From assembly GCF_056746865.1 (NCBI RefSeq), contig NZ_CM163382.1: DNA of 64,000 nucleotides; one strand, 5' to 3'. Positions within the stretch are counted from its first letter, which is position 1; each line of letters begins with the position of its first letter. A model generated the notes under the pieces. The model did no database searches and was not told the DNA's origin. It saw only the letters and a list, made by a program, of their open reading frames with translations. Position numbers and translations under genes: made by a program. Positions 3,299 to 23,554 of the stretch are shown one piece after another.

Positions 3299-3545
3299 AC
3301 AAAATCTGTGCGTTAACGCTCCCTAACACAGGTAGCCAGGTATTTTATAAATCTCTGTATTTTGTTGTCACTTCGATTCCGCGATTCAGCATATCGAACC
3401 AGACAAAATGATTACAACAAACCACAAGAAAGAGGGATTATAGCGTCAAAAGAATTCGAATTGCACATGGGGGCCTCATTGGTGGCCTCAAAAAGAACAA
3501 GGATAAAACAGTCGATACAAAACAATTGGTTATATAACCAGTTTC

Positions 3546-3564
3546 ATTCCGAGTCCGGGCACCA
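3546..3564 (+). repeat. 19-bp copy of the tRNA-Phe 3' end (ATTCCGAGTCCGGGCACCA): island att direct repeat, not a complete tRNA
   Basis: Exact match to the 3' terminal 19 nt of E. coli tRNA-Phe including CCA; upstream sequence does not match the rest of the tRNA; integrase gene begins about 200 bp downstream. Confidence 0.7.
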
Positions 3565-3761: not shown

Positions 3762-5027
3762 ATGGCACTGACTGACGCAAAAATCCGGGCTGCAAAGCAC
3801 ACTGACAAGGCTTATAAACTCACTGACGGGGCTGGCATGTTCCTGCTGGTACATCCTAATGGTTCCCGTTACTGGCGTCTCCGTTATCGCATTCTGGGTA
3901 AGGAGAAAACTCTGGCACTTGGTGTATACCCGGAGGTTTCTCTCTCCGAAGCTCGTACAAAACGGGATGAGGCCCGAAAACTGATTTCGGAGGGGATTGA
4001 CCCTTGCGAACAGAAAAGAGCTAAAAAAGTAGTCCCTGATTTACAACTCTCTTTTGAACATATCGCACGACGCTGGCATGCCAGTAATAAACAATGGGCA
4101 CAATCACACAGCGATAAGGTACTCAAAAGCCTCGAAACACACGTTTTCCCCTTTATCGGCAACCGGAACATCACAACACTCAATACCCCGGACCTGCTTA
4201 TCCCTGTTCGTGCTGCAGAAGCTAAACAAATTTATGAAATCGCCAGTCGTCTGCAGCAAAGAATATCTGCTGTAATGCGTTATGCCGTACAGTCTGGCAT
4301 CATCAGATATAATCCTGCTCTGGATATGGCTGGCGCATTGACCTCTGTAAAACGACAGCATCGCCCCGCTCTTGATCTTTCACGTCTGCCTGAACTTCTG
4401 TCGCGTATTAACAGTTATAAAGGTCAGCCTGTCACCCGGCTTGCTGTTATGCTGAATTTACTGGTTTTTATTCGCTCCAGTGAACTCAGATATGCCCGCT
4501 GGGCTGAAATTGATATTGACAATTCAATGTGGACTATTCCAGCCGAACGCAAACCTCTGCCAGGGGTAAAATTCTCACACCGGGGCTCCAAGATGCGAAC
4601 ACCACATCTTGTGCCACTCAGCAAACAGGCTGTAGCCATACTGACAGAACTTCAGACATGGGCTGGTGAAAATGGTCTGATCTTTACGGGAGCACATGAC
4701 CCGCGTAAACCAATCAGTGAAAATACCGTAAATAAGGCCCTCAGAGTGATGGGGTATGACACAACCAAGGAAGTCTGTGGCCATGGATTCCGGGCGATGG
4801 CGTGCAGTGCATTGATTGAATCCGGCTTATGGTCAAGAGATGCGGTTGAACGTCAGATGAGTCATCAGGAGCGCAACGGAGTACGTGCCGCGTATATTCA
4901 TAAAGCAGAACATCTGGAAGAACGTCGGCTTATGCTGCAATGGTGGGCAGATTTTCTGGATGCAAACAGGGAGGAGTGTATCAGTCCGTTTGAATATGCA
5001 AAAGTTAACAATCCACTGAAAAGGTGA
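3762..5027 (+). CDS. int: tyrosine recombinase / P4-type phage integrase
   Basis: 421-aa ORF; N-terminus MALTDAKIRAAKHTDKAYKLTDGAGMFLLVHPNGSRYWRLRYR... is the characteristic P4-integrase N-terminal domain; C-terminal catalytic region present (…HGFRAMA…); lies next to the tRNA-Phe att repeat. Confidence 0.9.
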   Translation: MALTDAKIRAAKHTDKAYKLTDGAGMFLLVHPNGSRYWRLRYRILGKEKTLALGVYPEVSLSEARTKRDEARKLISEGIDPCEQKRAKKVVPDLQLSFEHIARRWHASNKQWAQSHSDKVLKSLETHVFPFIGNRNITTLNTPDLLIPVRAAEAKQIYEIASRLQQRISAVMRYAVQSGIIRYNPALDMAGALTSVKRQHRPALDLSRLPELLSRINSYKGQPVTRLAVMLNLLVFIRSSELRYARWAEIDIDNSMWTIPAERKPLPGVKFSHRGSKMRTPHLVPLSKQAVAILTELQTWAGENGLIFTGAHDPRKPISENTVNKALRVMGYDTTKEVCGHGFRAMACSALIESGLWSRDAVERQMSHQERNGVRAAYIHKAEHLEERRLMLQWWADFLDANREECISPFEYAKVNNPLKR

Positions 5028-5282: not shown

Positions 5283-6326
5283 ATGACTGGCAAATTACGC
5301 TTTGAAGTGAACGATAACCAGGGCTGTTTCATATTTCCGGAAACCTGGTTTGGCTCGTTGCTGGATGAGTTTGAAGAACTGATTGATGCATACGATGCGG
5401 ATGAAATCAGCGAAACAAGTTACATCAACAAACTCAGGCGCCTTGCCCGACAGGAGAATGACTTTATTGATGTACACGCTCACTTGGCATACGTATTTCT
5501 GGAGCAGAATGCCCCGCGTAAGGCGCTGAATGCTGCCCTTAAAGGGCTGGCAGTTGGCAATCGTCTTATCCCTGAAGGTTTCAGTGGCAGAATCATCTGG
5601 ATACATCCTGACAACCGACCTTTTCTTCGTGCCCTCTATGCGGCAATCCTGGCAAATGCACATTTACAGCGTCATCAGGATGCCATCATGCTCATTGAAA
5701 AAATACTGGATTACAATCCCGAAGATAATCATGGTGCACGCTGGCTACTGGGACCGGAACTGTTACGCACTGGCGCTCATGAACAGGCACGCCATATACT
5801 GCAGGAACATGCAGATGAATTTTCACCTTACTGGTATGAACTCGGCCTTCTGCATTTTCTTAATGGGGAACTGGTAAAAGCTGCAACTGCATTTCGTCGC
5901 GGCTTTGCGGCAAATACTTACATCGCAGAAATACTGTGCGGAAATCTGCATCCATTTCCACTTGCTGTATGGCATAACTTTTCAGGCGGTCCGGATACTG
6001 CCGAAGATTATTATGCCACATACCACCCGTTATGGGGGCAATATCCGGAAGCATTGCTGTTTGTAAACTGGCTCTATAATCATTCCTCTGTGCTGCATGA
6101 ACGGGCAGAAATCATTAAATGCGCCGAAATGCTGATGCAGGAAGATGATTTCGAAATATGCGAAAGTATTTTAAGACAGCAGGAGAAGTTGCGTGAAAGA
6201 ATTGATGAGACGCTTTCTGAGAAAATTGTACAGAAATGCAGAAATATGAATGGTGAATATGTCTGGCCCTGGATATTGCCGTTTTCAGCGGCAGGCATGA
6301 AACATACTGGCATACAGTATCAGTAG
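5283..6326 (+). CDS. hypothetical protein, helical/TPR-like, unknown function
   Basis: ORF 5253..6326 (357 aa), internal ATG at 5283; no recognisable catalytic motif; composition suggests alpha-helical repeats. Confidence 0.4.
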   Translation: MTGKLRFEVNDNQGCFIFPETWFGSLLDEFEELIDAYDADEISETSYINKLRRLARQENDFIDVHAHLAYVFLEQNAPRKALNAALKGLAVGNRLIPEGFSGRIIWIHPDNRPFLRALYAAILANAHLQRHQDAIMLIEKILDYNPEDNHGARWLLGPELLRTGAHEQARHILQEHADEFSPYWYELGLLHFLNGELVKAATAFRRGFAANTYIAEILCGNLHPFPLAVWHNFSGGPDTAEDYYATYHPLWGQYPEALLFVNWLYNHSSVLHERAEIIKCAEMLMQEDDFEICESILRQQEKLRERIDETLSEKIVQKCRNMNGEYVWPWILPFSAAGMKHTGIQYQ

Positions 6327-6695
6327 ATATTGCATTAGTGTATCCTGCACACAAGTAATAATTTATCCACCAATAATAACACTGTTAATGTCCCCTTCCC
6401 CTGGTTGTCAGCCAGGGGTTATCTTCTGAATATTTCTTTTGAAAAGGATAACACAGTAAATTATTTTTATGAATTATCCCATGGGCTCATTAACACCCTT
6501 TCATAATGCTTTATTGTCAAATACGTTATGGCTGACATCAAAAAAACCGGATTTCCTCTGCCAGCGGGTAATCACCTCCCCGGTGTTTTCGGTTGGTCTG
6601 GTTACTCCTGTCTGGTTATTAGCAAGATAATTGCTATAAACAGTGGAAAACTCATCGTACATAATCTGGTGATGAACATTACGCTTATTTTCCCT

Positions 6696-6779
6696 TAGAC
6701 TGGCCCCCTGAATCTCCAGACAACCAGTATCACTTAAATAAGTGATACTGGTTGTCTGGAGATTCAGGGGGCCAGTCTA
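6696..6779. repeat. 84-bp perfect palindrome (two 41-bp arms)
   Basis: TAGACTGGCCCCCTGAATCTCCAGACAACCAGTATCACTTAA|ATAAGTGATACTGGTTGTCTGGAGATTCAGGGGGCCAGTCTA reads identically on both strands; abuts the stop of the truncated transposase fragment. Confidence 0.6.
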
Positions 6780-7013
6780 CTGAGCTCTTTCAGTGATATT
6801 TTCTTTGTGAGGAGCCATGATTTTATTAGCAGAGACTTTATCGTTTGAAAAACAACTATAAGCTGCCTTTGTTTCACTCCAGGTACGGCAGGAAACAGGA
6901 ATACTTTCTTCTGGTGAACGACTGAGGCTATTGAGGATATGTTTTACTCTTTTATCAAGTCTTGAGTCCCCTATATCCAGTGATTTTAGCTCCTGAATAA
7001 CCCAGTTTTCCAT
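6777..7013 (-). pseudogene. IS4-family (Tn5/IS50-like) transposase, N-terminal fragment only
   Basis: 78-aa ORF; …DIGDSRLDKRVKHILNSLSRSPEESIPVSCRTWSETKAAYSCFSNDKVSANKIMAP… aligns in pattern with the N-terminal DNA-binding region of Tn5 transposase; a full transposase would be about 450 aa. Confidence 0.55.
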
Positions 7014-7349
7014 AACACCTCTGAAATAATCTCTGTCTTTTCAATATAATACTATTATTTCAACTTGTGGGTAAGGGTATGAGATGCGAAGTGATGATCG
7101 ATAGTGATGCGAATAAGTGTTCGATTCAGATGCGATTATGCAATATGATTTTATGTGTGTTGCTTAATTATCATATTTCTTGCCCGTTCCCCGCCGCGCA
7201 GATCCGGTTTCCGGCTGAAGTGGATACAGACCTGATTTGTTGCTGAGTATCGGTAAAAGTGCGGCTTATAAGCTATTCTGAAACATGGCAAGTGAATCTG
7301 GGCGGTATAATTCCGGCAAATGTCATCTGTATTTAAAGGACGTGTGAGT

Positions 7350-7802
7350 ATGAAATTTCTGGAATGTGCTGTCCGGGATGTGATTTATGGGACCAATGTC
7401 CGTATTGTCAAACCGGTCAACATTTATGAATGTGAACTCAGGGACAACGTGTTTGTCGGCCCCTTCGTTGAGATACAGAAAGGCTGTGTCATTGGTAGTG
7501 GAAGTCGAATACAGTCGCATACGTTTATTTGTGAGAACGTAACACTGGGAGAGAACTGCTTCATTGGTCATAACGTGACGTTCGCCAACGATCTGTTTCG
7601 TTCAGGAGCACCAGATCCGTCACCGGATAACTGGATCAGCATTATCCTGGGGGATTCGGTTACTGTTGGCAGTGGAGCCATTATTCTGTCTCCGTATATA
7701 TGCAGCGGAGCTGTTATCGGTGCGGGGGCTGTTGTAGTAAAACCGATTGAGAACAAAGGCATTTATGCAGGAAACCCGGCAAGACTGATCAGAATATTAT
7801 GA
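7350..7802 (+). CDS. hexapeptide-repeat (left-handed beta-helix) acyl/acetyltransferase
   Basis: ATG at 7350 in ORF 7320..7802; repeated [LIV]-G-x-x-x-x-I hexapeptide pattern (…VIGSGSRI…VTLGENCFIGHNVTF…ILGDSVTVGSGAIIL…VIGAGAVVV…). Confidence 0.7.
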   Translation: MKFLECAVRDVIYGTNVRIVKPVNIYECELRDNVFVGPFVEIQKGCVIGSGSRIQSHTFICENVTLGENCFIGHNVTFANDLFRSGAPDPSPDNWISIILGDSVTVGSGAIILSPYICSGAVIGAGAVVVKPIENKGIYAGNPARLIRIL

Positions 7803-7928
7803 AATCGGGATAGGAGCTGATCTCACGATCAGCTTCCTCCCACACCGTCAAAATTGCTGGTCGGACTCGACTTATTTAATTGTGTAAACAGGGCCTCTCA
7901 GCGAAAGACCCTTATGCATCACCTGACG

Positions 7929-8495
7929 TTAAAAGTCACTACACCCAAGATGACGTTCAATAGCACCATGCGATTCAATGTAAGCCCGGGCCGTCTGTTC
8001 CAGTACACCAGACTCAGCGTTGTATGTGTTAGCTGCATCAAATACCAACGACAACACTTCAGGATACACAACCAGATGTGTAATGGAGTTATCTTCACCC
8101 AATACTTTTCCCCACGCCTGCTCAATCAGATTTCTTAGAACCACCACCTCACGACTCTTACACCAGACATCGTTATTAAGTAGCAACACCATAAGATAAG
8201 GAGTGGTATCGTTAGCCACAGCTTCCCTACTCCAGAGATAATATAAAGGGGTGGGCTCAACAGATTTATCTTTACGTCTCTTGCACTGCAAATATTCAGA
8301 AATGAGTCTATGCAGTTCACCAGTAAAATCGGCCATCAGAGAGGGAATGGTCTTATTAATACCCTGCCCTGGTATTAATTTAAATTGTAATAATTTAATT
8401 TCAGGATGTGTAGCTGCAGCCCGATACAGAGTTGCAAGGACACACTTTTGCCAGAGGGCGTTACAGGAAAGCTTAACATTTGATTCTGTATACAT
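7929..8495 (-). CDS. YfjJ/YagK-like island protein (inovirus Gp2-type family)
   Basis: 188 aa; paralogous to 11200..11805 (shared …YLWSREAV…/…HYVWAREFG… regions); this family is typical of CP4-57/CP4-6-type islands. Confidence 0.55.
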   Translation of the reverse strand: MYTESNVKLSCNALWQKCVLATLYRAAATHPEIKLLQFKLIPGQGINKTIPSLMADFTGELHRLISEYLQCKRRKDKSVEPTPLYYLWSREAVANDTTPYLMVLLLNNDVWCKSREVVVLRNLIEQAWGKVLGEDNSITHLVVYPEVLSLVFDAANTYNAESGVLEQTARAYIESHGAIERHLGCSDF

Positions 8496-12710: not shown

Positions 12711-13434
12711 TAGCCTCTCATTACTTTATGCTGCGGTTAACAGGATGCTGTCAGCATACCGCACCAGCCTGGCATTCTGGTACCCTCCCCAAACTCATTA
12801 CTCCCGTGCCACCACTTAACCGGTCTCTCAGACTGTCACTCACCAGGTCGGATACGTTTACCGCTCAGACGGATGCTTAATGCACTCTGTTCACGTGTGT
12901 TGCAGGTACGTTTTATATACGCAGGTTATACGCCAGCTATCAGAGATAGCCCTGTGGGTACAACGCAATCTGCTGCTACTGCGTTCTCATGCCCACTGAT
13001 CGCACTCACAGTGTTTATTTCACATATATGAACTCATGTATTTGATCTCATGTGTTTGATCTCTCTTATATATTTATAATACCAATCAGACAGTCTTATC
13101 CCACCAGTGATAACTGTCGCCTGCCCACAGGTCACAGGCTGATATACCACAACCGCCTTCAAAAACAACTCTGCAATTATCAGAACGCTAGTTTTCCCCT
13201 TGTCTCACGAAAGTCCTCCCTCCTTTATCGCGTGCGCGTGCGGAAGCATCGTTTCGCAACAACCACCCGACATACCGGTACAGCTCAGCCACCGCAATCC
13301 CCCCGTTTATCTCCTGACGGTCACATTCCCGATTATTTTTTACGTTTCTCCCCGGTTGTTATGCCGGTGAAGGTGGTGCGTTGTTTTCATCACCAACGCC
13401 GGTTGAGATTAACAACATCCGGAGGAACATTCTC

Positions 13435-17575: not shown

Positions 17576-17721
17576 AGTGGTTAATGGTCTGCGAAAAGGC
17601 AGCTGAATCTCTTCATCATGCAGAACGGAATTGCACACAACGGACTGATACTTCTCTGGCGGATGAGAGAGGGGAAGCATTTATGTCCGGGAAAAACCAC
17701 TTTATCTGACCATGCTGTTTT

Positions 17722-17761
17722 GTACCTGCCGGTATCCACTTTTGTGGGTACCGGCTTTTTT
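17722..17761 (+). other. stem-loop plus T-run in the flu 5' leader (terminator-like; may close an IsrC-like small RNA or act as a leader structure)
   Basis: GTACCTGCCGGTATCCAC-TTTT-GTGGGTACCGGC followed by TTTTTT, ending about 25 nt before the flu ATG. Confidence 0.35.
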
Positions 17762-17786
17762 ATTCACCCTCTGTAAGGAAAAGCTG

Positions 17787-18515
17787 ATGAAACGACATCT
17801 GAACACCAGCTACAGGCTGGTATGGAATCACATTACGGGTACCCTGGTGGTGGCCTCCGAACTGGCCCGCTCACGGGGAAAACGCGCCGGTGTGGCGATT
17901 GCGCTGTCTCTTGCTGCTGTCACATCAGTCCCGGCACTGGCTGCTGACACGGTTGTACAGGCGGGAGAAACCGTGAGCGGCGGAACACTGACAAATCATG
18001 ACAACCAGATTGTATCCGGAACAGCTGATGGCGTGACTGTCAGTACCGGGCTTGAGCTGGGGCCGGACAGTGACGAAAACACCGGCGGGCAATGGATAAA
18101 AGCGGGTGGCACAGGCAGAAACACCACTGTCACCGCAAATGGTCGTCAGATTGTGCAGGCAGGAGGAACTGCCAGTGATACGGTTATTCGTGATGGCGGA
18201 GGGCAGAGCCTTAACGGACTGGCGGTGAACACCACGCTGGATAACAGAGGTGAGCAGTGGGTACACGGGGGAGGGAAAGCTGCCGGTACAATTATTAACC
18301 AGGATGGTTACCAGACCATAAAACATGGCGGACTGGCAACCGGAACCATCGTCAACACCGGTGCAGAAGGTGGTCCGGAGTCTGAAAATGTGTCCAGCGG
18401 TCAGATGGTCGGAGGGACGGCTGAATCCACCACCATCAACAAAAATGGCCGGCAGGTTATCTGGTCTTCGGGGATGGCACGGGACACCCTCATTTACGCC
18501 GGTGGTGACCAGACT
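17787..18515 (+). pseudogene. flu: antigen 43 (Ag43) autotransporter, 5' portion interrupted by an IS
   Basis: MKRHLNTSYRLVWNHITGTLVVASELARSRGKRAGVAIALSLAAVTSVPALAADTVVQ… matches the Ag43 signal peptide and passenger domain; identity ends at …YAGGDQT where IS sequence begins. Confidence 0.85.
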
Positions 18516-18716
18516 GCAAAATGGCATCTGAATCGATCGCAGTTTGGCATTCGAATCGATCATGATTTGGCATCCATCTCCGATCACAGTTTGGCATCAC
18601 AATCGATCACGATTTGGCATGCTTCCGATCATTGATTGGCATCCTGCCAGTCACTCCGGGAATTAACTCTTTTCACCACAGTCTCCATTGCCGTGTTTAA
18701 ACCAGTGGAGACGTCA

Positions 18717-20282
18717 ATGTCCAGAAAGAGAAAATCCAGGAGCACTATGGAAACCTGTTTTAAGATTCTTCAGCTCAAGTTCGACAAGAAGCTGACTAAC
18801 CGTTGTATCGGACTGACGTTACACATCAGCGCCTCAACCGTTTTTGAGGTTCTTGCCCGCTTCAAAGCCTCTTCTCTGTCATGGCCATTACCTGCTGATA
18901 TATCCCATGACACGCTGGAGAAACTCATTTTTCCGCCCAAAGACACCTTTGCATCAGAGCTTGTAATGCCTGACATGTTGTACCTCGATACGGAAATGAG
19001 AAAACCAGGTGTGACGCGGCAACTGTTGTGGATGGAATACAAGGCACAGGCGGGTAACAAAGCGATGGGATACTCGCACTTCTGCCGTTGCTACCGGGAG
19101 TGGAAAAAAACGCGACGTCTCTCCATGCGCCAGGAGCATCGTGCCGGCGAAAAGCTTTTTATCGACTTCTGTGGTCCTACGGTTCCTGTTATTAATCCGG
19201 ACACCGGTGAGATACGCCGCGTGGCAATCTTCGTGGCCGTAATGGGGGCGTCCAACTATACCTACGTTGAAGCGTGCGAAGGTCAGGACATGATGTCATG
19301 GTTAAATGCCCACAGCCGTTGCCTGACCTTCCTGGGCGGCGTACCGAAGCTGCTCATCCCCGATAACCTCAGAAGCGCAGTGAAAAAGGCCGATCGATAT
19401 GAGCCTGTCATCAACGACAGTTATCAGGCACTGGCTGAGCACTATGGCACGGTTATCATCCCGGCCCGACCACGCAAACCTAAAGATAAACCAAAAGCAG
19501 AAAACGGCGTCCTCATCGTCGAACGATGGCTTCTTGCCCGCATCCGTAATGAAACCTTCCACACGCTCAGGGCGCTGAATGCGCGCCTTAGGGAGTTACT
19601 GACAGACATGAATAACCGGCCAATGAAGGGGTACGGCAATCAAACCCGTGCAGAACGCTTCCGCATACTGGATGCGCCAGCACTCTCTCCGCTGCCTCTG
19701 GCACCTTATGAATACACGGAATACAAAGCTGTGAAGGTTGGCCCTGACTACCACGTTGAATATGCCCGTCACTGGTACTCCGTTCCACACGAACTGGTCG
19801 GTCAGCGTCTGTCACTGAAGGCGGGGCAGTCGGTGGTACAGCTCTGGCACAAGGGGCAGTGTGTGGCGCAACATCCGCGCAGCACACATGAATATAAACA
19901 CACAACCAATCCGCTTCACATGCCAGAGCGCCACCGGCAGCACGGGACATGGACACCGGAACGCCTGATCGAGCAGGGAAAACGTACGGGCCCGTCCACA
20001 GGCCGGGTGGTTGAATCCATGCTGAAGGCAAAACCCCATCCGGAACTGGCTTATCGTGCAGTTCTGGGGCTGCTGGCACTTCAGAAAAAATACGGCCCGG
20101 AACGGCTGGAAAAGGCCTGTTACGTTGCCCTGCACTATAACGCCCCTGACAGACGCTTTATCGACAATCTGCTGCGTCACCATCGGGAGAACCTGGAGCT
20201 TCCATTATCCCGCCAGGGCGAACAACATCCGGCATATGCTTCAGAGCATGAAAACCTGCGTGGTCCGGGCTACTACCACTGA
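18717..20282 (+). CDS. istA: IS21-family transposase IstA
   Basis: Large ORF 18636..20282 with integrase-core features (…LFIDFCGPTVPV…); the start codon is uncertain (18636, 18717 or 18747). Confidence 0.75.
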   Translation: MSRKRKSRSTMETCFKILQLKFDKKLTNRCIGLTLHISASTVFEVLARFKASSLSWPLPADISHDTLEKLIFPPKDTFASELVMPDMLYLDTEMRKPGVTRQLLWMEYKAQAGNKAMGYSHFCRCYREWKKTRRLSMRQEHRAGEKLFIDFCGPTVPVINPDTGEIRRVAIFVAVMGASNYTYVEACEGQDMMSWLNAHSRCLTFLGGVPKLLIPDNLRSAVKKADRYEPVINDSYQALAEHYGTVIIPARPRKPKDKPKAENGVLIVERWLLARIRNETFHTLRALNARLRELLTDMNNRPMKGYGNQTRAERFRILDAPALSPLPLAPYEYTEYKAVKVGPDYHVEYARHWYSVPHELVGQRLSLKAGQSVVQLWHKGQCVAQHPRSTHEYKHTTNPLHMPERHRQHGTWTPERLIEQGKRTGPSTGRVVESMLKAKPHPELAYRAVLGLLALQKKYGPERLEKACYVALHYNAPDRRFIDNLLRHHRENLELPLSRQGEQHPAYASEHENLRGPGYYH

Positions 20283-20298
20283 CAGAAGGAACAACAGT

Positions 20299-21054
20299 AT
20301 GAGTGATAACCTGTTAAACAAACTGACCCAACTGAAACTCCCGGCGATGGCCGGGAGCCTGATACGGCAGCGGGAAACGCCTCAGACCTACGACGAACTG
20401 TCGTTCGAGGAAAGGCTGACGCTGCTGGTTGATGACGAGCTTCTGAGCAGGGAAAACAGCCGTGTGGCACGGTTGAGAAAAAATGCCGGCCTGAAATACC
20501 AGGCAACACCGGAAGGGCTGCGCTATCCGGCCTCAAGAGGTCTGCGGGCTGAACAGATGAGAGAACTGCTGAACGGCCACTACATAACCCACAGGAAAAA
20601 CCTGCTGATAACCGGTCCGACAGGATGTGGCAAGAGCTGGATAGCCAATGCGCTGGGCGAACAGGCATGTCGACAGAAACACAGCGTCCGGTACTGTAGA
20701 ACCGGGCGATTACTGGAACAACTGGCTCAGGGACGTGTTGATGGCAGCTGGCTGAAATATCTGAAACAGTTGCAAAAAATACAGGTTCTAATCCTGGACG
20801 ATCTGGGGCTGGAACAGTTAAGTAACGCCCAGTGTAATGACCTTCTGGAGCTCATAGAGGATCGTTACGGACAAAGCAGCACGATAGTGGTAAGCCAGTT
20901 CCCGGTAGATAAATGGCATGGTCTGATGGAGAACCCAACAACAGCAGATGCCATCCTGGACAGACTGGTACATAACTCACACCGGGTGGTCCTTCAGGGA
21001 GAGTCACTGAGGAAAAATCCCCCGGTAGTGGAAAGCAGCGAAAAAACGCGTTAA
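20299..21054 (+). CDS. istB: IS21-family helper ATPase IstB
   Basis: 251 aa from the ATG at 20299; Walker A GPTGCGKSW and Walker B VLILDDLG. Confidence 0.85.
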   Translation: MSDNLLNKLTQLKLPAMAGSLIRQRETPQTYDELSFEERLTLLVDDELLSRENSRVARLRKNAGLKYQATPEGLRYPASRGLRAEQMRELLNGHYITHRKNLLITGPTGCGKSWIANALGEQACRQKHSVRYCRTGRLLEQLAQGRVDGSWLKYLKQLQKIQVLILDDLGLEQLSNAQCNDLLELIEDRYGQSSTIVVSQFPVDKWHGLMENPTTADAILDRLVHNSHRVVLQGESLRKNPPVVESSEKTR

Positions 21055-21144
21055 AAAGCGGTAGAAAAAGTTAAGTTCCCGGTTGATCGAATGGATGCGA
21101 ATCGCTGATCGGACTTCGATGCCAATCCGTGATCGAATAGAGCG

Positions 21145-23554
21145 GAATACGCACCAGACGGTACACGGAGAGGCACATAACACCCGACTGGAGGGGGGTA
21201 ACCAGTATGTACACAACGGTGGCACGGCAACAGAGACGCTGATAAACCGTGATGGCTGGCAGATGATTAAGGAAGGAGGAACTGCCGCGCATACCACCAT
21301 CAACCAGAAAGGAAAGCTGCAGGTGAATGCCGGCGGTAAAGCGTCTGATGTCACCCAGAACACGGGCGGTGCACTGGTTACCAGTACAGCTGCAACCGTC
21401 ACCGGCACAAACCGCCTGGGAGCATTCTCCGTTGTGGCGGGTAAGGCTGATAATGTCGTACTGGAAAATGGCGGACGTCTGGATGTGCTGAGCGGACACA
21501 CAGCCACTAATACCCGTGTGGATGATGGCGGAACGCTGGATGTCCGCAACGGTGGTGCCGCCACCACCGTATCCATGGGGAATGGCGGTGTACTGCTGGC
21601 CGATTCCGGTGCCGCTGTCAGTGGTACCCGGAGCGACGGAACGGCATTCCATATCGGAGGCGGTCAGGCGGATGCCCTGATGCTGGAAAAAGGCAGTTCA
21701 TTCACGCTGAACGCCGGTGATACGGCCACGGATACCACGGTAAATGGCGGATTGTTCACTGCCAGAGGGGGCTCGCTGGCGGGCACCACCACGCTGAATA
21801 ACGGTGCCACGCTTATCCTTTCCGGGAAAACGGTAAATAACGATACCCTGACCATCCGTGAAGGTGATGCACTCCTGCAGGGAGGCGCTCTTACCGGTAA
21901 CGGCAGGGTGGAAAAATCAGGAAGTGGCACACTCACTGTCAGCAACACCACACTCACCCAGAAAACCGTCAACCTGAATGAAGGCACGCTGACGCTGAAC
22001 AACAGTACCGTCACCACGGATGTCATCGCTCAGCGCGGCACGGCCCTGAAGCTGACCGGCAGCACAGTGCTGAACGGTGCCATTGACCCCACGAATGTCA
22101 TCCTGACATCCGGTGCCACCTGGAATATCCCCGATAACGCCACGGTTCAGTCGGTGGTGGATGACCTCAGCCATGCCGGACAGATTCATTTCACCTCCGC
22201 CCGCACAGGGAAGTTCGTTCCGACAACTCTGCAGGTGAAAAACCTGAACGGGCAGAATGGCACCATCAGCCTGCGTGTACGCCCGGATATGGCGCAGAAC
22301 AATGCTGACAGACTGGTCATTGACGGTGGCAGGGCAACCGGAAAAACCATCCTGAATCTGGTGAACGCCGGCAACAGTGGTACGGGGCTGGCGACCACCG
22401 GTAAGGGTATTCAGGTGGTTGAGGCCATTAACGGTGCCACCACGGAGGAAGGGGCTTTTGTCCAGGGGAATATGTTGCAGGCCGGGGCCTTTAACTACAC
22501 CCTCAACCGGGACAGTGATGAGAGCTGGTATCTGCGCAGTGAAGAACGTTATCGTGCTGAAGTCCCCCTGTACGCCTCCATGCTGACACAGGCAATGGAC
22601 TATGACCGGATTCTGGCAGGCTCCCGCAGCCATCAGACCGGTGTAAACGGTGAAAATAACAGCGTCCGTCTCAGCATTCAGGGCGGCCATCTCGGTCACG
22701 ATAACAACGGCGGTATTGCCCGTGGGGCCACGCCGGAAAGCAGCGGCAGCTATGGCTTCGTCCGTCTGGAGAGTGACCTGCTCAGAACAGAGGTCGCCGG
22801 TATGTCACTGACGACAGGAGTGTATGGTGCTGCAGGCCATTCTTCCGTTGATGTTAAGGATGATGACGGCTCCCGCGCCGGCACGGTCCGGGATGATGCC
22901 GGCAGCCTGGGCGGATATATGAACCTGACACACACCTCCTCCGGCCTGTGGGCTGACATTGTGGCACAGGGAACCCGCCACAGTATGAAAGCGTCATCGG
23001 GCAATAACGACTTCCGCGCACGGGGCTGGGGCTGGCTGGGCTCACTGGAAACCGGTCTGCCCTTCAGTATCACTGACAACCTGATGCTGGAGCCACGGCT
23101 GCAGTACACCTGGCAGGGGCTTTCGCTGGATGACGGTAAGGACAACGCCGGTTATGTGAAGTTCGGGCATGGCAGTGCACAACATGTGCGTGCCGGTTTC
23201 CGTCTGGGCAGCCACAACGATATGACCTTTGGTGAAGGCACCTCATCCCGTGCCCCCCTGCGTGACAGTGCAAAACACAGTGTGCGTGAACTGCCGGTGA
23301 ACTGGTGGGTACAGCCTTCCGTTATCCGCACCTTCAGCTCCCGGGGTGATATGCGTGTGGGGACCTCCACCGCAGGCAGCGGGATGACGTTCTCACCCTC
23401 ACAGAATGGCACTTCACTGGATCTGCAGGCAGGACTGGAAGCCCGTGTCCGGGAAAATATCACCCTGGGCGTTCAGGCCGGTTATGCCCACAGCGTCAGC
23501 GGCAGCAGCGCTGAAGGCTATAACGGTCAGGCCACGCTGAATGTGACCTTCTGA
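21145..23554 (+). pseudogene. flu: antigen 43 (Ag43) autotransporter, 3' portion (rest of passenger domain plus beta-barrel)
   Basis: Reading frame resumes with …HQTVHGEAHNTRLEGGNQYVHNGGTATE… and continues to the canonical autotransporter C-terminus …GYNGQATLNVTF. Confidence 0.85.

Follow-up and report, generated by a model that had tools for sequence, protein, structure and literature searches.

Phased GATGCGA repeats upstream of a hexapeptide acyltransferase gene as a probable relic of an IS21-family left end

The repeats and their neighbourhood

Between a truncated transposase gene and a hexapeptide acyltransferase gene, the window (the whole stretch of 64,000 nucleotides that was analysed) contains three copies of the heptamer GATGCGA on the plus strand, at positions 7083-7089, 7106-7112 and 7129-7135, with start-to-start spacings of 23 and 23 bp. 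A direct motif search confirmed this exact 23-bp phase, which had been reported in the first-pass annotation of this DNA, and Pfam profiles bore out the two neighbouring genes that it had named. The acyltransferase gene lies on the plus strand (7350-7802; Pfam Hexapep, 56 bits) and is preceded by a 208-bp leader (7143-7349). On the other side of the repeats, the transposase gene (6777-7013, minus strand) retains 78 aa, the N-terminal DNA-binding domain of an IS4/Tn5-family transposase (Pfam Tnp_DNA_bind, 70 bits), and RefSeq gives the same product name in the identical locus L001. The corresponding Tn5-like IS (IS4 family) ends in a 19-bp terminal inverted repeat, CATACCCTTACCCACAAGT (7063-7081, minus strand), and it is this end that cuts the array of repeats at 7081/7082. 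The same 19-bp repeat was found at equal distance from the transposase ATG in three other loci (L003, L007 and L009), and a related sequence is present at both ends of the Tn5-like copy in locus L004. It matches the outside end of Tn5, CTGACTCTTATACACAAGT, at 13 of 19 positions.

The transposase gene is truncated after codon 78 by an 84-bp perfect palindrome (6696-6779), which consists of two IS2 left-end (IRL) copies arranged head to head, with 41-nt arms that are 100% complementary and a 2-nt centre. One arm matches the sequence directly upstream of an annotated IS2 transposase gene, and no IS2 body is present at 6696-6779. The palindrome may have originated by snap-back at a small natural palindrome inside the IS2 IRL. 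Left of 6777, beyond the palindrome, no continuation of the Tn5-like ORF was found, the tblastn extension giving only noise. We also observed a promoter-like site inside the Tn5-like end (7021-7050, plus strand; CTGAAA-18 nt-TATAAT, 10/12 matches), which reads outward over the repeats in the direction of the acyltransferase gene; such sites were no more numerous in this region than expected from shuffled sequences.

The repeats lie on an island whose P4-type integrase gene (3762-5027) is preceded by TTCATTCCGAGTCCGGGCACCA (3543-3564), an att-like repeat resembling the 3' end of tRNA-Phe. This 3'-end-like fragment is all that is present, as ARAGORN found no intact tRNA in the window. In strain 2016C-3878, which matches the window perfectly across the compared positions 6000-8000, an annotated tRNA-Phe is located ~200 bp upstream of an integrase gene of equal length, and the left boundary of the island therefore differs here.

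The heptamer itself is not over-represented in the window (10 occurrences against 9.3 expected); it is the sole 7-mer there with three equally spaced (8-40 bp) occurrences. In 300 first-order Markov simulations, any equally phased 7-mer triple appeared in 0.7% of the simulated windows, which at the scale of a 5-Mb genome amounts to ~0.5 expected, so that the statistic alone is not decisive. Tandem Repeats Finder, run over 6600-7500, missed the 23-bp array, as the conserved blocks are separated by spacers that are too diverged, and a general repeat search likewise returned no 23-bp family. Since the statistic is weak at genome scale, the reality of the repeats is settled by homology with conserved phasing: the segment 7080-7142 matches ~167 other E. 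coli chromosomes at 93.7% identity, and the 23-bp phase is retained in them. The first-pass annotation had named a lack of such conservation in related genomes as the observation that would speak against the motif, and the opposite was found. The phased triple is thus real and non-random, and its sequence reads as a set of direct repeats to which the transposase of an IS would bind.

Homologous copies and the architecture of the units

When 6960-7160 was compared with 5,426 complete E. coli genomes in a sensitive BLAST search, the region fell into modules. The whole stretch was recovered at at least 99% identity in 81 genomes, and the ~167 others carry only the 7080-7142 block, as a single unannotated chromosomal copy (93.7%; E = 3e-17). 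The 63-bp block alone was also found on 3 plasmids. In locus L006, the block forms the outer half of a six-unit array, which begins with TGCATAA and continues with TCGCAT cores at offsets of 7, 30, 53, 76, 99 and 120. About 110 bp inward of this array is the start of a pseudogene annotated as 'IS21 family transposase', whose 106 aa share 67% identity with the IstA encoded in the window (see below). Plasmid L008 carries the same end, followed by 419 aa of istA at 78% identity to the window IstA. At the point that corresponds to the inner junction of the window, L006 continues with TCGCATCTCAGTCGATC.

The flanks of the window, L006 and L008 mutually diverge directly past ...GATGCGATTATGCA (...TTATGCA), and a mobile element therefore has its tip at 7142. 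In accordance with this boundary, homology to the acyltransferase leader of the ColV-type plasmid pEco_23-2678-2 (L002) begins exactly at 7143, adjoining the terminus. Since the homology starts at this position, the IS21-type element inserted 208 bp upstream of the acyltransferase gene.

Read inward on the minus strand, the segment 7082-7142 is 93.7% identical to the outer 63 bp of the L006 array. Its 61 bp comprise the IS21-type terminus TGCATAA, two complete 23-bp units and the first block of a third. The terminus occupies 7136-7142, as delimited by the divergence of the flanks and the start of the leader homology, and on the plus strand it ends ...TTATGCA, with the 3'-terminal CA at 7141-7142. 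Each complete unit contains one TTCGCATC block and one TCGATC-type block. In unit 1, these are TCGCATC at 7129-7135 and TCGAAC, a variant of TCGATC, at 7119-7124; in unit 2, they are TCGCATC at 7106-7112 and TCGATC at 7096-7101. Only the first block of unit 3 remains (7083-7089), directly before the junction ...TTCGCATCT/CATACCC with the Tn5-like end (a slash marks the junction here and below). From unit 1 to unit 3, the first blocks are the third, second and first GATGCGA of the plus strand, and their offsets from the terminus (7, 30 and 53) follow the same register as in L006 and in an intact IS at 18515 of the window. The consensus of 25 units, in the minus-strand reading, is TT(C/G)GCATC-N4-TCGATCA-N4, and its information content is highest at positions 1-8 and 13-19. 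In the window, the complete two-block unit was found nine times, as compared with 0.31 expected, and always at IS21-type ends: five times at the left end of the intact element, twice at its right end and twice in the segment 7082-7142.

The intact element (18515-21153, plus strand) is an ISSso4-like member of the IS21 family, as judged from NCBIfam and Pfam profiles and the RefSeq name. Its istA gene (18747-20282) matches the NCBIfam profile transpos_IS21 with 286 bits, its istB gene (20299-21054) matches IS21_help_AAA with 258 bits and Pfam IstB_IS21 with 206 bits, and identical copies of 18515-21153 are named 'IS21-like element ISSso4 family' in RefSeq. The element has split a gene for an antigen-43-type autotransporter into two ORFs (17712-18635 and 21083-23554), and 6 bp of target sequence, CCAGAC, are duplicated on its two sides (18509-18514 and 21154-21159). 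If the autotransporter flanks were rejoined, a single reading frame would result (...AGGDQT/VHGEA...). At its left end, the element has the terminus TGCAAAA and six units, with TGGCAT cores at 7, 30, 53, 77, 100 and 122; the right end has 2-3 inverted unit copies, one of them of the TTCGCATC type.

The terminal inverted repeats (TIRs) of IS21 consist of multiple direct repeats (L1-L2 and R1-R2) 'separated by 23 bp', and within each of these repeats about one DNA turn separates two conserved regions, CS1, which is contacted by HTH-2 of IstA, and CS2, which is contacted by HTH-1 (Spinola-Amilibia et al. 2023, PMC10122671). Specific binding of IstA to the repeats has been demonstrated for IS5376, and a terminal CA dinucleotide is a hallmark of IS21 (PMC10122671). 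The segment 7082-7142 has a TG...CA terminus (TGCATAA read inward; ...GCA on the plus strand, ending at 7142), multiple direct repeats at 23-bp spacing and, within each repeat, two blocks about one helical turn apart, which may correspond to CS1 and CS2 by analogy with IS5376. An array contiguous with istA and istB is absent from 7082-7142 and present in the homologous copies. Because no istA or istB follows, we classify the locus, which reads on the minus strand, as a relic of the left TIR (L-TIR) of an IS21-family IS rather than as a complete element.

Taken together, these results suggest, with a probability that we put at roughly 0.92, that each of the phased GATGCGA motifs is the first block of a 23-bp direct repeat, and that the three repeats follow one another at the left end of an IS21-family element related to ISSso4. 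Such a feature is already known in kind, being an ordinary IS21-family left-end relic. Among the three options raised in the first-pass annotation, that of subterminal transposase-binding sites thus holds in kind, for an IS end, and those of iterons and of operators of a multi-site regulator fall away, as discussed in the following section. Phased repeats of this sort are easily mistaken for operators or iterons, and the genome annotation leaves the 61-bp end unlabelled.

Neither the E. coli complete genomes nor the PLSDB plasmids nor the species-representative genomes yielded an intact copy of the exact TCGCATC/TGCATAA variant. The E. coli complete genomes and PLSDB contained solely truncated copies of the variant, or relatives, among which the closest complete elements are only ~69-72% identical over the left end and the start of istA. 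A search of 100,044 species-representative genomes for two phased TCGCATC units returned only two unrelated matches, in MAGs of Synergistaceae and Dehalococcoidia, which are probably due to chance.

The relic also recurs as part of a larger composite. The Tn5-like fragment, the IS21 relic and the 5' part of the acyltransferase gene, corresponding to 6777-7473 of the window, are present at 99.3% identity in E. coli O104:H4 2011C-3493 (L009; NC_018658.1, 4766563-4767259), where iucA (aerobactin) and a gene for an MFS transporter adjoin them and pic is close by. With 308 aa, the Tn5-like ORF of that locus is longer than in the window, and the acyltransferase gene breaks off at the equivalent of window position 7473. 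The window thus has the composite in common with the aerobactin-region island of E. coli O104:H4, and its occurrence next to iucA there shows that it moves between islands as one module. In the 81 genomes and in several metagenome contigs, the composite is conserved at 99-100%. In four metagenome contigs, the relic is eroded further (L016, ~50-141; L018, ~225-315; L021, ~80-170; L019, ~12780-12870): an IS2 right end lies inside unit 2, and just CGATCATCATTTCGCATCT is left beside the Tn5-like end. In L019, the IS2 end inside unit 2 is itself cut again.

Alternative explanations for the repeats

We infer that the relic, which has neither genes nor a partner end, is most likely inert today. The alternative that best withstands the data is that IstA and IstB from the intact element at 18515-21153, 11 kb away, use the relic in trans and thereby promote rearrangements of the island. 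Integration by IstA requires two complete repeats and the terminal CA (PMC10122671), and the relic retains both of these in vitro requirements; moreover, cores of both types, TTGGCATC and TTCGCATC, occur at the ends of the resident element itself. However, there is no sign of such events, the composite is 99-100% conserved in the 81 genomes and several metagenome contigs, and the resident IstA is only ~67-78% identical to that of the lineage of the relic, with the termini also differing (TGCAAAA and TGCATAA, respectively). We therefore regard present-day use in trans as unlikely. It would be compatible with the IS21-end origin of the repeats and would only add a present-day activity to it.

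It is still less likely, and indeed improbable, that the IS4/Tn5-family transposase next to the repeats binds them as subterminal sites inside the end of its own element, an association that the first-pass annotation had implied. The repeats do lie ~70 bp upstream of the transposase ATG, and other loci show the same arrangement, even with a transposase of only 73-77% identity. Nevertheless, the 19-bp inverted repeat that closes the Tn5-like IS extends only to 7081, which places the phased repeats outside the element, so that they do not belong to its end, and the same 63 bp occur in the ~167 genomes without any Tn5-like sequence. Locus L004, on an Escherichia marmotae plasmid, is informative on this point, as it contains the only near full-length Tn5-like copy found. 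There, the Tn5-like IS is situated inside an IS21-type left end, with an 8-bp duplication of the IS21-unit target, TTGGCATC, on both sides. The stop codon of its transposase gene is immediately followed by its second inverted repeat, and istA and istB lie directly downstream. Since the duplication flanks the Tn5-like IS, the repeats are its target DNA and not a part of it. By analogy with L004, the unit 3 core at 7083-7089 may be the retained copy of a Tn5-like target duplication. L004 has also undergone other changes: a copy of ISEc16 (IS3 family; 1746-2960) is inserted ~40 bp upstream of the Tn5-like ATG, and the outer Tn5-like left end is found, together with the IS21 array, in inverted orientation ~2.6 kb away (300-360), an arrangement that points to an ISEc16-associated inversion.

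The other neighbour offers a further explanation, namely that the repeats are operators of a multi-site regulator for the hexapeptide acyltransferase gene, in whose control region the first-pass annotation had seemed to place them. Their location 215-270 bp upstream of the gene, on the promoter-region side, would suit such a role. However, the gene and its 208-bp leader are conserved at 96.5% identity (7143-7805 of the window) on the ColV-type plasmid pEco_23-2678-2, where no repeats lie upstream, and the repeats are therefore not its operators. In addition, the repeats are found elsewhere beside unrelated neighbours, and a promoter scan gave no promoter-like site within or overlapping the repeats and no excess over shuffled sequences. 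The array is thus independent of the acyltransferase gene, and we consider the operator explanation highly improbable.

Plasmid- or phage-type iterons, whose period is near 23 bp, or a chance coincidence, for which the phased triple alone would be only moderately improbable (0.7% per window, ~0.5 per genome), have a negligible likelihood, since no replication-initiator gene is present among the neighbouring ORFs and annotations, so that the repeats do not class as iterons, and the homology to IS21-family ends (E = 3e-17) excludes chance.

Insertion of the Tn5-like IS and comparison with known systems

The IS21-end reading of the repeats leaves the position of the Tn5-like insertion to be explained. 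Six types of junction between a Tn5-like left end and an IS21-type array were found, and in all of them the Tn5-like left end lies within 1 bp after the first block (TTSGCATC); the searches were seeded from this left end, and the common orientation is accordingly not an independent observation. The junction of the window and its relatives is located in unit 3 of a left end (TTCGCATCT/CATACCC; 7063-7089). Three others are located in unit 2 of a left end: on E. fergusonii and Salmonella plasmids (TTGGCATTC/CATACCC; L003, 2920-2967, and L024), on an E. coli plasmid with a transposase that is ~74% identical (TTAGCATC/CGTGGCA; L005, ~2890-2950), and on the chromosome of E. coli GF60 (TTCGCATCG/CATCCCC; L007, 3095-3150). 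The fifth, in L004 (335-470 and 4405-4440), lies in unit 6 of a left end and has the target duplication (TTGGCATC/CATGTCC), and the sixth, on a metagenome contig between housekeeping genes (L013, 2491-2570), lies in unit 3 of a right-end-type TIR (TTCGCACTC/CATCCCC). The flanks outside the IS21 tip differ in all six junction types.

One possible explanation for this is that a single old insertion spread with its IS21 host and that units were subsequently lost by recombination between repeats. However, repeated targeting is the better account of the right-end case and of the unequal divergence of the two parts, and we lean, at somewhat better than even odds, toward the hypothesis that the Tn5-like IS specifically targets the putative IstA-binding repeats of ISSso4-type IS21 elements. 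The closest relatives of its transposase outside Escherichia show at most 35% identity, and PLSDB contained no relatives between ~35% and 73% identity. If the hypothesis is true, one IS would recognise the transposase-binding site of another, possibly disabling it or hitch-hiking on it. The IS4-family element IS231A reportedly inserts preferentially into the terminal repeats of Tn4430, and this case has in common with ours that an IS4-family element repeatedly lands in the end of another transposon; should the nesting be due to target specificity, it would provide a second case in which an IS4-family element homes to the ends of another transposon. The two cases differ in their hosts, in the subgroup (IS231 as against IS50-like) and in the target, and the specificity of the Tn5-like IS is putative. 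This repeated nesting at the same point of IS21-type repeats is the only possibly new biology at the locus.

The locus records a layered history of the island, in which an IS21-type element would have been the first to insert, upstream of the acyltransferase gene. The Tn5-like IS would then have inserted into the third repeat of its left end, and the IS2-derived palindrome would later have truncated the Tn5-like IS. Of the first element, neither istA and istB nor the second end is left, and the 61-bp relic is carried passively with the island. In the live element, as may be supposed from family membership and the published work on IstA (PMC10122671), an IstA tetramer would have read the 23-bp repeats by binding units 1 and 2 of the left end plus the right end. 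One HTH domain would lie on TT(C/G)GCATC and the other on TCGATC, about one helical turn off, as extrapolated from the IS5376/IS21 work, and the 23-bp spacing, which is described as suiting supercoiled crossings (PMC10122671), would let the end wrap into such a crossing. The ends would then be synapsed, and the terminal CA (7141-7142 here) would be cleaved and joined to the target with the help of IstB.

Among known systems, the relic may be compared with the ISSso4-like element at 18515-21153, with which it shares the architecture of the units and their register from the terminus. The IstA of the relic lineage (L006 and L008) is related to the ISSso4-like IstA in its N-terminus, with 67-78% identity. 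At the third position of the first block, the relic has C where this element has G, its terminus is TGCATAA and not TGCAAAA, and identity at the DNA level is only ~69-72% across the left end and the beginning of istA. On these sequence differences we take its parent to be a sister IS of ISSso4 and not a copy of it.

With the TIRs of IS21 and IS5376, the relic shares the TG...CA terminus, the 23-bp direct repeats and the two blocks per repeat, and its relatives additionally share the larger number of repeats at the left than at the right end and, in the homologous copies, the position of the array beside istA-istB. Unlike these systems, the relic is confined to 61 bp, without istA, istB or a partner end. 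CS1 and CS2 of IS5376 are GC-rich and ~10 bp apart, whereas the blocks here are TTCGCATC and TCGATC, separated by 4 bp edge to edge and 11 bp start to start. The ISSso4-type left end also has about six units, as compared with the two described as the IS21 minimum. A likeness also exists to the ends of phage Mu and Tn7, each of which carries several phased transposase-binding sites (for MuA and TnsB, respectively), and IstA is structurally akin to MuA and TnsB (PMC10122671). The sites and the proteins of Mu and Tn7 are nevertheless different from those considered here, and the locus contains no Mu or Tn7 genes.
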